DNA from: a virus
Lineage: Duplodnaviria; Heunggongvirae; Uroviricota; Caudoviricetes
IMG/VR virus record: IMGVR_UViG_2531839179_000010
DNA length: 4,472 nt
Reading direction: 5' to 3' (one strand)
A model generated the notes under the pieces. The model searched no databases, had not been told where the DNA came from, and saw only the letters and a program-made list of their open reading frames with translations. This document shows positions 6 through 4,472 of the stretch, in pieces (position 1 is the first letter of the stretch; the number at the start of each line of letters is the position of its first letter). Position numbers and translations under genes: made by a program.

Positions 6-82
6 TGGCCCACCTCCGAGGACTCGAACCTCGCACCGTCAACTTAGAAGGTTGATGCTCTATCCGGATGAGCTAGTGGTGG
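6..82 (-). tRNA. tRNA-Arg (anticodon UCU), phage-borne argN/argU-like
   Basis: Reverse complement folds as a 77-nt cloverleaf: acceptor CCACCAC/GAGGTGG (one A.A mismatch at 6-67), D-arm GCTC-ATCCGGATA-GAGC, anticodon stem TCAAC/GTTGA with loop CTTCTAA (anticodon TCT), variable loop CGGTG, T-arm CGAGG-TTCGAGT-CCTCG, discriminator G, encoded CCA (plus-strand TGG at 6-8). Layout parallels E. coli argU as I recall it. Confidence 0.8.
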
Positions 83-83
83 T

Positions 84-160
84 TGGTGGCCCTTGCTGGA
101 CTTGAACCAGCGACCTGGCGATTATGAGTCGCTCGCTCTGACCAACTGAGCTAAAGGGCC
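84..160 (-). tRNA. tRNA-Ile2 (anticodon CAU, lysidine-type), ileX/ileZ-like
   Basis: Reverse complement GGCCCTTTAGCTCAGTTGGTCAGAGCGAGCGACTCATAATCGCCAGGTCGCTGGTTCAAGTCCAGCAAGGGCCACCA: perfect 7-bp acceptor GGCCCTT/AAGGGCC, anticodon loop CTCATAA, T-loop TTCAAGT, encoded CCA. Closely resembles E. coli ileX as recalled, not initiator or elongator Met. Only 1 nt (pos 83) separates it from the Arg tRNA. Confidence 0.8.
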
Positions 161-2235: not shown

Positions 2236-2290
2236 AATAAACAACAAAAAACCCGCCGAAACGCTGAGAGATCACAGCGATGGGCGGGTT
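2236..2290 (-). terminator. Intrinsic terminator at the 3' end of the hok mRNA
   Basis: Minus strand: AACCCGCC (2290-2283), inner hairpin CGCTG/CAGCG, GGCGGGTT (2257-2250), then UUUUUUGUUGUUUAUUU. Lies about 75 nt downstream of the hok stop. Confidence 0.6.
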
Positions 2291-2365
2291 AAGTGCGGGT
2301 GCGTTGAGGATGCCTGACACATCAGAGGTGGGCGGGGATGGGATCAGCTCCCCGCCCGGTCACTC

Positions 2366-2521
2366 TTACTTCCTGGATTCGTAGTCTACGAAGACAGCGA
2401 CCTCCGTCTGGCCGGTTCGGATTCGTACCTCACAGAGGTCTTTCCTCGTTACCAGTGCCGTCACTATGACGGTTAAACAGATGACGATCAGGGCGATTAA
2501 CATCGCCTTTTGCTGCTTCAT
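2366..2521 (-). CDS. hok: Hok family type I toxin (HokD/RelF-like), 51 aa
   Basis: Translation MKQQKAMLIALIVICLTVIVTALVTRKDLCEVRIRTGQTEVAVFVDYESRK is near-identical to E. coli HokD/RelF as recalled (single TM helix, conserved Cys). SD AAGGAG 9 nt upstream of the ATG at 2521. Confidence 0.9.
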   Translation of the reverse strand: MKQQKAMLIALIVICLTVIVTALVTRKDLCEVRIRTGQTEVAVFVDYESRK

Positions 2522-2578
2522 AGCCTGCTTCTCCTTGCCTTTCGGCATGTAAGAGGCTAACCTACATGTGCAAAGCAT
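2366..2578 (-). CDS. mok: mok-like reading frame (in-frame 19-codon N-terminal extension of hok, as in chromosomal mokC), 70 aa
   Basis: In-frame upstream ATG at 2578 gives the leader MLCTCRLASYMPKGKEKQA, similar to the MokC N-terminus (MLNTCRVPLTDRKVKEKRA) as recalled. SD GAGG lies 9-10 nt upstream, where a Sok antisense RNA would pair. Confidence 0.55.
   Translation of the reverse strand: MLCTCRLASYMPKGKEKQAMKQQKAMLIALIVICLTVIVTALVTRKDLCEVRIRTGQTEVAVFVDYESRK
2544..2572 (+). promoter_or_regulatory. Candidate sok promoter (antisense to the mok start region)
   Basis: Plus strand TTGCCT (2544-2549), 17-nt spacer, TAACCT (2567-2572); predicted start near 2579, reading into the hok leader. Position corresponds to the sok promoter in plasmid R1 hok/sok. 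Confidence 0.35.
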
Positions 2579-2650
2579 GAAATTGGCCTCAGATTAATGT
2601 TAAGCGTCTTGCCGGACGCGTAATGTTAACTGGGGCTTTTCTCTATCTGC
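2579..2650 (+). ncRNA. sok: Sok-like antisense RNA (antitoxin of the hok/mok/sok system); boundaries approximate
   Basis: Inferred from the hok/sok architecture: the plus-strand transcript from the candidate promoter would be complementary to the mok SD and leader (2579-2650). The 3' end is not defined; a hairpin GCGTC-ttgccg-GACGC at 2603-2618 with a weak T-rich tail is one candidate. Confidence 0.35.
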
Positions 2651-2697
2651 CTTTTGGTGTTCATGCCTGAAGCAGATAGCCTCAAGCACCCGCAGTC

Positions 2698-2727
2698 ATT
2701 CTACTTACCTCGCCAATATGAAATCAA
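2698..2727 (-). promoter_or_regulatory. hok/mok promoter
   Basis: Minus strand TTGATT (2727-2722), 18-nt spacer, TAGAAT (2703-2698). Predicted start near 2693-2691, at the 5' fold-back element GCGGGUGCUUGAGG, which resembles the 5' end of R1 hok mRNA. Confidence 0.5.
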
Positions 2728-2748
2728 TCAGAAAGGTGCCCCATAAAA

Positions 2749-3435
2749 TCACTCCTTCTCTTCTTTACCGTAGTGGAGTTGACCAATTTTGATAAGAGGG
2801 CGTCCCTGAGATTTGCGGTGTAGATTGGTATCGCGCAGAGAATACACACAGCCACAATATTCCTGCTGATAGAATTTTTCGCGCTTGCTGATTTCAATCA
2901 TACGGGACGAGCCGCCCTGCTTGCGCCAGTTATAATCCCAGTACACCATGCCCGGATAATGCGCGACGGCTCGCCGCCCACAGTCGTTAACCTGCTGCAT
3001 ATTTTTCCAGCGTGAAATGCCCAGTGAACTGCTGATCACACTGAAACCATTTTCAGCGGCGTACAGCGCTGTCCGCTCAAAACGCATGTCAAAACACATG
3101 GTGCAACGGATCCCTCGTTCGGGCTCCCATTCCATTCCTTTGGCTCGTTCAAACCAGTTGTCTGTGTCGTAATCAGCATCAATAAACGGCACGCCGTGTT
3201 GTTCAGCAAAGCGAATATTCTCATCCTTACGAATTAAATACTCTTTCTGAGGATGAATGTTCGGGTTGTAGAAAAAGATGGTGTAGTCGATTCCCGAGGC
3301 CTGAAGCGCCTCCATCACCTCACCGGAACATGGAGCACAGCAAGAGTGCAGTAGTAGTTTGTTTGCCCCGTTTGGGAGCTCCAATTTGGGCCGTTTGAAA
3401 TCAGCAACTGTCATAAATATGTTTATTGGGGTCAT
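2749..3435 (-). CDS. QueH-like (DUF208) putative epoxyqueuosine reductase, 228 aa
   Basis: Intact 228-aa ORF with the N-terminal motif [11 protein letters not shown], which I recognise as the DUF208/QueH Fe-S signature, plus further conserved-looking Cys/His/Asp ([16 protein letters not shown]). Start ATG at 3435 has no obvious SD, so the start is uncertain (second ATG 7 codons in). Confidence 0.6.
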
Positions 3436-3582
3436 AAAAATATCAAAGAGTGTAGCATTAGAACGGGGCTATCGGAAACAGATGTGTGACTGCTCCCCGC
3501 CCTTTCGGGCGGTCTCCTGATGATTTGAGGGTGCAGAAATCCCTCCGGTTAAGGATTAAATTTTTAACAGTGCTAAATTTAA

Positions 3583-3939
3583 TTATTCAGTTCTGGATTT
3601 TGTCGCCCTGCGTATCCGCGCTTTCGCGTTACGCTCAATCTGTATCAGCTTTTCTATATTTCTCCGCCTTTCCTGTTCCTCCTGGCGCAATAGCCTTACA
3701 TCATCTGCCAGTCTGGTTTCTCTTTTTGCCACAGAGAGCATCCAGTCAAACGGCTCCACAACCGCACCGCAGATTTTACAGCGGACCTGACGCTCTTTTT
3801 CGTCAACCCGTACAGAGGCGTGATGGCAATATGGTCTTTCCGATGGATCATAAAGAAAATTAACCTGATTACGAGGGTCATCCTCTTTTACCGGAAATAA
3901 AACAATATTACTTAACTCATCTTCTGGTTTTATTTCCAC
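3583..3939 (-). CDS. Hypothetical zinc-ribbon protein with basic C-terminal helix, 118 aa from GTG (129 aa from TTG at 3972)
   Basis: ORF-track frame 3583..3972; preferred start is GTG at 3939-3937 with SD AAGGAG (3951-3946) 6 nt upstream. Contains C-H-H...C-x-I-C (PYCHHASVRVDEKERQVRCKICG) and an Arg/Glu-rich C-terminal region. No family recognised. Confidence 0.55.
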   Translation of the reverse strand: MEIKPEDELSNIVLFPVKEDDPRNQVNFLYDPSERPYCHHASVRVDEKERQVRCKICGAVVEPFDWMLSVAKRETRLADDVRLLRQEEQERRRNIEKLIQIERNAKARIRRATKSRTE

Positions 3940-3940
3940 G

Positions 3941-4000
3941 TCACTCTCCTTTGATGCGAATGCCTGCGGCAATTAGTGCCTGATAACTAATTTCACTCAC
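3941..4000 (-). CDS. Candidate 19-aa leader/small ORF (VSEISYQALIAAGIRIKGE) upstream of the zinc-ribbon gene
   Basis: GTG at 4000-3998 preceded by strong SD AGGAGGTGG (7-nt spacer). Its stop TGA (3943-3941) lies 1 nt before the downstream GTG and its last codons contain the downstream SD. Confidence 0.25.
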   Translation of the reverse strand: MSEISYQALIAAGIRIKGE

Positions 4001-4124
4001 AGTACCACCTCCTGAAAATTACCCTGATAGAAAGCCAGTACACGCTGCATAACTTCGCTTTTACGACACTCAGTACAAATTATATTATGACGCCTGTCGT
4101 AACGACGTATTTCTCCGTCAGGTA

Positions 4125-4452
4125 TGAGGTAGCCTGAGTTTAACGGACACTCCTTCCTGAAATAGAATGGCATCAGAAGGAGCTAATAATGAGCAGAAAA
4201 ACCCAACGTTACTCTAAAGAGTTCAAAGCCGAAGCTGTCAGAACGGTTCTTGAAAATCAACTTTCGATCAGTGAAGGCGCTTCCCGATTATCCCTTCCTG
4301 AAGGCACTTTAGGACAATGGGTTACCGCCGCCAGAAAAGGGCTCGGTACTCCTGGTTCCCGCACGGTGGCTGAACTGGAATCTGAAATTCTGCAACTGCG
4401 TAAGGCGTTAAATGAAGCTCGCCTTGAGCGAGATATATTAAAAAAAAGCAAC
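4125..4452 (+). mobile_element. IS3-family insertion sequence (IS600-like), left end only; truncated by an IS30-like insertion
   Basis: Left terminal repeat begins TGAGGTAGCCTGAGTTTAACGGACAC at 4125, 64 bp upstream of orfA. IS sequence stops at about 4452 where IS30-like terminal sequence begins. Confidence 0.65.
4189..4452 (+). pseudogene. IS3-family transposase OrfA (IS600-like), 3'-truncated
   Basis: Translation MSRKTQRYSKEFKAEAVRTVLENQLSISEGASRLSLPEGTLGQWVTAARKGLGTPGSRTVAELESEILQLRKALNEARLERDILKK matches IS600 OrfA as recalled (HTH plus leucine zipper). It ends in the A-run frameshift window (4440-4447) and then diverges into IS30-like sequence. Confidence 0.7.
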
Positions 4453-4472
4453 TGTAGATTCAATTGGTCAAC
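4453..4472 (+). mobile_element. IS30-like terminal inverted repeat (element continues beyond the window)
   Basis: TGTAGATTCAATTGGTCAAC matches the IS30 terminal repeat as I recall it; it begins exactly where the IS600-like orfA reading frame loses similarity. Confidence 0.5.

Follow-up and report, generated by a model that had tools for sequence, protein, structure and literature searches.

The window analysed here, by which we mean the whole stretch of 4,472 bp from the IMG/VR virus record IMGVR_UViG_2531839179_000010, comes from a Rac-like lambdoid prophage and reaches from its early-right ("nin-like") region to Q, and all of its phage genes lie on the minus strand. Three co-directional open reading frames (ORFs) of this strand, coding for 228, 118 and 19 amino acids (aa) and placed as listed in Table 1, had been grouped by an initial annotation into one undescribed functional module made of a QueH-like transfer RNA (tRNA) modification enzyme, a zinc-ribbon partner and a leader peptide. 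We consider it probable that the region is a mosaic nin-like stretch of a prophage damaged by an insertion sequence (IS) and that it carries two unrelated cargo cassettes, the first being QueH, a predicted vitamin B12-independent enzyme, and the second the 118-aa protein, which would be independent of it. The nin-like location itself, between the replication genes and Q, was confirmed, as were the flanks described by the annotation, with hok/sok on one side and an IS3-family element on the other.

The DUF208/QueH motif that had been read from the 228-aa ORF was borne out by a profile search, since Pfam PF02677 matched with E = 1.9e-65 and 220.6 bits (gathering cutoff 23.5) over profile positions 1-174 of 175. 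Furthermore, phmmer against PDB aligned query residues 27-203 with residues 4-178 of the 192 residues of 7lc5_A, the QueH of T. maritima (E = 5.3e-22). All seven family cysteines are present (C32, C33, C36, C111, C114, C194 and C196), distributed over the motifs HSCCAPCS, RCxxC and YCGC with no motif cysteine missing, and they are invariant in 77 sequences, namely the window protein and 76 chromosomal homologues; HSCCAPCS is common to diverse homologues. In the alignment with T. maritima QueH the seven residues fall on its Cys/Asp positions. Which of these residues hold the [4Fe-4S] cluster and which the adjacent metal site we take to be as described in the literature on the family. The start marked as likely in Table 1 is preferred to the first ATG because RefSeq calls a 221-aa product and the ORF of the Enterobacter orthologue begins at the equivalent of M8. 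By family, the 228-aa ORF is a bona fide QueH, a cobalamin-independent epoxyqueuosine reductase whose enzymatic activity in the host is predicted. RefSeq already gives the product as "epoxyqueuosine reductase QueH", so that "undescribed" was too strong a word for this gene.

A scan of GTDB, which holds one genome per species, returned at least 581 QueH relatives, the best 80 of which are 77-99% identical to the window protein. The chromosomal QueH proteins of Erwinia, Serratia, Pectobacterium, Rahnella, Proteus and Enterobacter share 77-92% identity with it, and prophage-type neighbours were seen, among these best 80, in the E. albertii and S. flexneri loci only. Three other QueH loci that were scanned (Enterobacter hormaechei, Erwinia amylovora and Serratia ureilytica) display ordinary chromosomal neighbours; TonB, a chemotaxis receptor (MCP), LysR regulators and an EamA transporter are found beside chromosomal QueH. 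Given the high identity to chromosomal proteins and the ordinary surroundings of the homologues, the prophage QueH appears to be a recently captured enterobacterial housekeeping-type gene and not a divergent paralogue. As a separate observation, the closest non-prophage QueH among the best 80 relatives (92% identity; Enterobacter hormaechei locus L006, 5181-6690) immediately follows a 234-aa remnant of the phage-integrase family and precedes budR/budA-like genes, an arrangement that in Enterobacter points to a small integrated islet and not to a core gene.

Pairwise Nei-Gojobori estimates between the window gene and the prophage alleles gave 19-21 synonymous and 3 nonsynonymous differences, with a ratio of nonsynonymous to synonymous substitution rates (dN/dS) of ~ 0.03 (range 0.02-0.08), and the full 228-codon frame is kept in 88 of 88 other prophage copies. 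QueH is under strong purifying selection in prophages. Of 5426 complete E. coli genomes, a collection that leaves out Shigella, 995 (~ 18%) carry it, and its slot in prophages is consistently the one between DUF977 and hok. Among the 50,697 phage records searched by tblastn, Escherichia phage HannyBb is the only credible cultured phage with QueH, labelled hypothetical there and lying in the same slot as in prophages; all 24 other matches were discounted, being either metagenomic fragments that are unverified or records of 280-380 kb that are dubious.

The pairing of QueH with the 118-aa gene did not hold up when co-occurrence across prophages was examined. The 118-aa gene is present in 1679 of the 5426 E. 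coli genomes and is contiguous with QueH in only 2 of them (2 of the 985 genomes with a full-length QueH), its usual setting being after DUF977 or beside ead/Ea22 genes, without QueH. In IMG/VR the slot between DUF977 and hok is occupied by QueH alone, by the 118-aa gene with other DNA behind it or, in the minority of cases, by both genes, and 62 informative QueH loci were without the 118-aa gene upstream versus ~ 14 with it. The IMG/VR and GTDB locus sets consist of the 80 best matches each and are thus biased towards window-like alleles; in the latter set, adjacency was observed in 1 of 80 species-level QueH loci, these being the best 80 of at least 581 relatives. Prophages of Serratia, Yersinia, Klebsiella and Salmonella carry 118-aa homologues after RusA, NinH, YbcO or DUF977, with the Q-position gene right behind them in Serratia, Yersinia and Klebsiella, and no QueH was found within 5 kb of the homologues in the loci examined. 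Nor was any 118-aa-type partner found within 6 kb of the chromosomal QueH orthologues in the best 80 GTDB loci.

At the nucleotide level, blastn against QueH-only and 118-aa-only loci delimits a homology block of hok/sok and QueH (2284-3485), which is collinear in QueH-only prophages, and a 118-aa cassette from 3497. Indeed, the two genes do not share a homology block free of internal recombination junctions, as one block ends at 3485 and the other begins at 3497. Contig L086 has the same IS, DUF977 remnant, 19-codon ORF and 118-aa allele at 99.5% identity, diverges at 3501 and is without QueH. The junction at 3486-3496 sits at a GC-rich hairpin of the minus strand, CCGCCC-GAAA-GGGCGG, and the RNA fold of 3470-3545(-) displays a hairpin cluster of -29.2 kcal/mol (z = -3.3), which might mark a boundary of recombination or serve to stabilise RNA; the hairpin has no U-tract and is hence not a canonical terminator. 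Considering the rare adjacency, the separate homology blocks and the lack of QueH beside the homologues in four genera, QueH and the 118-aa gene are best read as unrelated single-gene cassettes placed side by side by recombination, not as a functional pair.

The 118-aa gene is real, given its dN/dS of ~ 0.05 and the 82 intact copies out of 90. Its GTG start at 3939 lies behind AAAGGAGAG and is an ATG in most alleles, and 118 aa is the right length, not that of the 129-aa ORF opened by a TTG, because distant homologues begin at the equivalent residue. The protein matches phrog_1621 (PHROG 1621, function unknown) at E = 1.4e-55 and reached no Pfam, NCBIfam or PADLOC family, in agreement with the first description of it as a zinc-ribbon protein without a named family. 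When 26 homologues, the most distant at 44% identity, were aligned, three conserved elements stood out: an N-terminal ELSNVVxFP, an invariant C38-x-H40...C54-x-x-C57 and a helix LRxEExxRRxNIxKLIQIERNAKARIR. The C-H-H...CxxC pattern first proposed is thus retained for the CxH...CxxC ligands and for the basic C-terminal helix, which is conserved, but not for the second His, which is not. The AlphaFold2 model (predicted local distance difference test, pLDDT, 75.5) shows a two-stranded ribbon (43-46, 51-54) followed by a single helix (63-117). With this model Foldseek retrieved nothing from PDB at E<=0.001, the top hit being a TFIIB ribbon (1pft, E = 0.46), a profile search of PDB sequences retrieved nothing at E<=1, and the TFIIB-type zinc ribbon PF08271 remained at 21.4 bits, below its cutoff of 29 (E = 1.8e-4). 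The resemblance to the TFIIB ribbon is weak. The ligands are CxH...CxxC, and a single helix of ~ 55 residues follows the ribbon; PHROG 1621 is related to phrog_8538 and phrog_4865.

A profile search of 1.84 billion representative proteins retrieved 1508 relatives of the 118-aa protein at E<=1e-3 and 224 at E<=1e-10, mostly of 100-180 aa, the family also having GC-rich longer members of 175-241 aa. The N-terminal (V/I)xFP motif, the CxH...CxxC ribbon and the EE(K/R)NxKAR helix were present in 15 of the 15 relatives that were read. When ten relatives that are distant or longer were scanned against Pfam, one Ea22 fusion came up, and all else was TFIIB-ribbon or coiled-coil noise below threshold. 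The 118-aa protein belongs to a large unnamed family of lambdoid nin-region (early-region) zinc-ribbon proteins. As a low-confidence guess, it might act alone in early lytic development by binding protein or nucleic acid, as a zinc-ribbon/coiled-coil adaptor. Some further observations were made on its relatives. Two of them, P0002 (202 aa) and P0122 (256 aa), are predicted fusions of an Ead/Ea22 domain (PF13935) with the zinc-ribbon protein, and these may be real or may be frameshift or annotation artefacts. IMG/VR contig L099 harbours two cassettes of the gene, at 2221-2652 and 3917-4351, ~ 1.7 kb apart. Klebsiella prophages with a homologue have, downstream of the lysis genes, a gene (L250/L251, 9488-9782) resembling Acb2/Tad1-hairpin, an anti-CBASS/Thoeris sponge family.

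Several observations weigh against the picture of a working QueH that has nothing to do with its neighbour. A consensus scan, which weak promoters could escape, found neither a sigma-70-like promoter nor a Shine-Dalgarno sequence before QueH, and no terminator was found after it in the scan of the window. QueH lacks the sigma-70 promoter of its own upstream and the intrinsic terminator downstream by which a moron is recognised, and for this reason is not a textbook moron as had been claimed; it is probably transcribed within the early-right transcript. Since the IS separates QueH from the upstream early operon, the window copy may be poorly expressed. As for the protein, T. maritima QueH has an Asp where the window protein has Cys36 (CCAPD versus CCAPC); a Cys is found there in every other homologue aligned, including S. 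aureus-type and gut-bacterial ones, CCAPC being the common form. Finally, both genes co-occur in one lineage, represented by S. flexneri (locus L005), two FDAARGOS strains of E. coli and ~ 20 IMG/VR contigs, and there may be a lineage-specific interaction between QueH and the 118-aa protein.

Alternative explanations were weighed against the same data. One of them holds that QueH is a neutral passenger kept only through its linkage to the hok/sok addiction locus, with which it shares one collinear homology block, and the failure to detect a dedicated promoter would fit. We regard this as improbable, because neither the low dN/dS (~ 0.03, 19-21 synonymous versus 3 nonsynonymous differences) nor the intactness of all 88 copies is what a passenger would show, and because hok/sok is also found in the same slot without QueH, meaning that the linkage can be broken.

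Similarly doubtful is the idea that the 19-codon ORF, which reads VSEISYQALIAAGIRIKGE and connects the stop of DUF977 with the 118-aa start, acts as a translated leader or coupling peptide to control translation of the 118-aa gene. In its favour, a good AGGAGG precedes the GTG of the small ORF by 7 nucleotides (nt), this start and the stop of DUF977 overlap (GTGA), the stop of the small ORF lies 1 nt before the 118-aa gene in the window allele, and an ORF starts at the same position in most alleles that follow DUF977. However, in most of these alleles it has 27 codons from the same GTG and overlaps the 118-aa gene out of frame, so that length and C-terminus vary, the 19-codon form being found outside the window at one locus only (the window-like allele of L086). 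Moreover, it is absent from 19 loci and is missing where the 118-aa gene has other upstream neighbours, and the peptide shows no purifying selection, with 15 nonsynonymous and 7 synonymous distinct changes (ratio 0.66). Conservation across all contexts is limited to the 3' ~ 30 nt, where the 118-aa gene has its ribosome-binding site. The small ORF is probably junction sequence rather than a leader peptide with a function; DUF977 could exert passive translational coupling.

Less probable still is that QueH was repurposed, whether for counter-defence or for a non-tRNA substrate (such as another epoxide, or 7-deazaguanine in DNA), as in the suggestion of a repurposed Fe-S enzyme made at first. 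Phages do use the queuosine-precursor pathway for DNA modification (PMC6884629) and the gene occupies an accessory-gene slot, but its 77-92% identity to chromosomal QueH, its identical invariant residues and its very low dN/dS give no sign of neofunctionalisation, and no DpdA, Tgt or QueC/D/E was found in 17 kb of a sister prophage. Furthermore, neither QueH nor the 118-aa protein, nor the 95-aa protein listed in Table 1 or the DUF977 remnant, matched any PADLOC defence model at E<=0.1, so a defence or counter-defence role was set aside; NCBIfam models matched none of these four proteins either. As to a co-evolved module of small ORF, zinc-ribbon protein and QueH, for instance one in which the zinc ribbon targets or regulates QueH, the shared direction, the gap of 147 nt in the window and the recurrence in the one lineage named above speak in its favour, but the idea is largely refuted by the gene distribution, together with the mosaic junction between the genes and the lack of conservation of the small ORF, and is very improbable.

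The remaining features of the window are collected in Table 1. The IS, inserted at 4124/4125, truncates the DUF977/Ren-like gene and cuts off both QueH and the 118-aa gene from the early operon upstream; homology to intact loci ends at 4124, and the remnant covers positions 90-134 of the 134 of the Pfam profile only. Its frame stays open up to an ATG at 4173 within the IS end, forming a 58-aa chimeric ORF (3997-4173) with its first 16 codons derived from the IS. The IS3-family end sequence occurs at 1831 places in 436 E. coli/Shigella plasmids. An antisense ORF at 3486-3863(+) has no family match and was treated as spurious, and the composition profile of the window displays no compositional island.

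An intact and near-identical order is seen in E. coli FDAARGOS_944, with cI/Cro-like, YdaT, YdaV, DUF977, a hypothetical protein of 118 aa, QueH and HokD, followed by DUF1367, DUF1364, DUF1133, four tRNAs and lysis genes. Shigella flexneri SFBU1023 has the same core order (DUF977, 118-aa gene, QueH, hok, Q-like gene), with a 118-aa protein and a QueH 98-99% identical to those of the window. The DUF1133 Q-like mechanical ORF overlaps YbcO by 124 nt; the RefSeq product has 184 aa, implying a start near 904 and an overlap of 4 nt. The DUF1367 ORF has probably 199 aa rather than 213 aa, and the 95-aa phrog_340 protein is found in only some related prophages.

The phage does carry tRNA genes of its own, as had been pointed out. 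The link drawn from them to QueH is weak, since the two tRNAs, Arg-UCU and Met/Ile-CAU, are not queuosine substrates. The one with the CAU anticodon is given as Met by ARAGORN and, for the equivalent gene, as Ile by RefSeq, which would imply lysidine modification. Thr and Gly tRNAs are also present in sister prophages and are not queuosine substrates either.

Table 1. Positions of the annotated features along the 4,472-bp window
Feature	Position	Strand	Remarks
tRNA-Arg(UCU)	6-82		
tRNA-Met/Ile(CAU)	84-160		
DUF1133 Q-like protein	350-1024	minus	mechanical ORF of 224 aa, GTG start
YbcO/DUF1364	901-1191	minus	
95-aa protein	1829-2116	minus	phrog_340, function unknown, no Pfam family; between DUF1367 and hok
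hok/sok type I toxin-antitoxin locus	2366-2691	minus	same homology block as QueH
hok coding sequence	2366-2521	minus	Pfam HOK_GEF, E = 9.8e-23
sok RNA family	2516-2691		Rfam RF01794, 117 bits
QueH ORF	2749-3435	minus	228 aa from first ATG; likely start 3414 (M8, 221 aa)
Mosaic junction and GC-rich hairpin	3486-3517	unassigned	blastn block boundaries, RNA fold
118-aa zinc-ribbon and long-helix protein	3583-3939	minus	GTG start; PHROG 1621
19-codon ORF	3941-4000	minus	GTG start overlaps DUF977 stop
DUF977/Ren-like C-terminal remnant	3997-4124	minus	Pfam DUF977, E = 3.3e-13; phrog_142 Ren-like
IS3-family insertion sequence, left end	4125-4472	plus	orfA from 4189, Pfam HTH_Tnp_1, E = 1.3e-20

Compared with known systems, the window QueH belongs to the same family as T. 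maritima QueH (PF02677, DUF208; PDB 7LC5) over its full length, with conserved cysteines and the same length class, but it is encoded by a temperate prophage whose host already has QueG, and its activity is predicted. QueH carries out the last step of queuosine synthesis, the reduction of epoxyqueuosine (oQ) at tRNA position 34, as an iron-dependent and B12-independent alternative to QueG (PMC5372724, PMC9508795, PMC10378866). The QueG of E. coli catalyses the reaction predicted for the window protein, oQ34 to Q34 (queuosine at position 34; PMC5372724), but is non-homologous, requires cobalamin (PMC4646009) and a [4Fe-4S] cluster, and is a chromosomal core gene. Phage 7-deazaguanine DNA clusters (DpdA with FolE/QueD/QueE/QueC) likewise bring queuosine-pathway genes into phages, but they act on DNA and belong to the early pathway, whereas the window has a single late-step tRNA enzyme with no DpdA nearby. 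Like the accessory genes and morons of lambdoid nin regions (hok/sok, NinB-NinH, YbcO, RusA), QueH occupies the slot between replication genes and Q and forms a mosaic single-gene cassette that assorts independently; unlike lambdoid morons, it is without the classic promoter/terminator pair. According to Hutinet et al. (2019), the viruses of their analysis had no homologues of QueA, QueG or QueH (PMC6884629), and no paper describing a prophage QueH was found in the searchable full-text literature. What seems to be new is hence the systematic carriage of QueH by temperate Rac-like phages, the enzyme family and the RefSeq gene name being known.

Taken as a sequence of events, QueH would have been captured from an enterobacterial chromosome and kept as single-gene prophage cargo, recombination would have set the two cassettes together, and an IS3-family insertion would have damaged the mosaic region. 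From its family, QueH is expected to act on tRNA-Asp, -Asn, -His and -Tyr, where it would use a cysteine-ligated [4Fe-4S] cluster and an adjacent metal site to turn epoxyqueuosine-34 into queuosine-34 by reduction. E. coli is not known to synthesise B12 de novo and builds up oQ when the vitamin is lacking. A paper by Frey et al. (1988), cited in PMC4646009, deals with the cobamide-dependent step from oQ to Q in E. coli and Salmonella. As E. coli and Shigella have the B12-requiring QueG as their only chromosomal enzyme for this reduction, a prophage QueH could finish queuosine under B12 scarcity, which would benefit the lysogen, phage translation or both; this activity, the B12-sparing benefit and the timing of expression are what we infer. 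We tentatively propose, at somewhat less than even confidence, that temperate Rac-like phages spread a B12-independent oQ reductase in E. coli and Shigella, so that lysogens would finish Q under low cobalamin and non-lysogens would stall at oQ.

The apparent gene pair is a product of lambdoid mosaicism and does not merit further work as a system. Should the prophage QueH be active, about one in five E. coli strains and some Shigella would gain a B12-independent queuosine route that laboratory K-12 is without, and strain differences in oQ/Q content and in Q-dependent phenotypes (biofilm, virulence, metal stress) could be explained. A 2026 preprint reports that phage infection raises Q/oQ via queG in Shewanella, which indicates that the oQ-to-Q step may matter in infection. 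If true, the prophage gene would offer a clean case of a temperate phage with a late-step tRNA-modification enzyme, and of a phage-borne auxiliary gene by which NAU/NAC decoding is tuned for host, phage or both.

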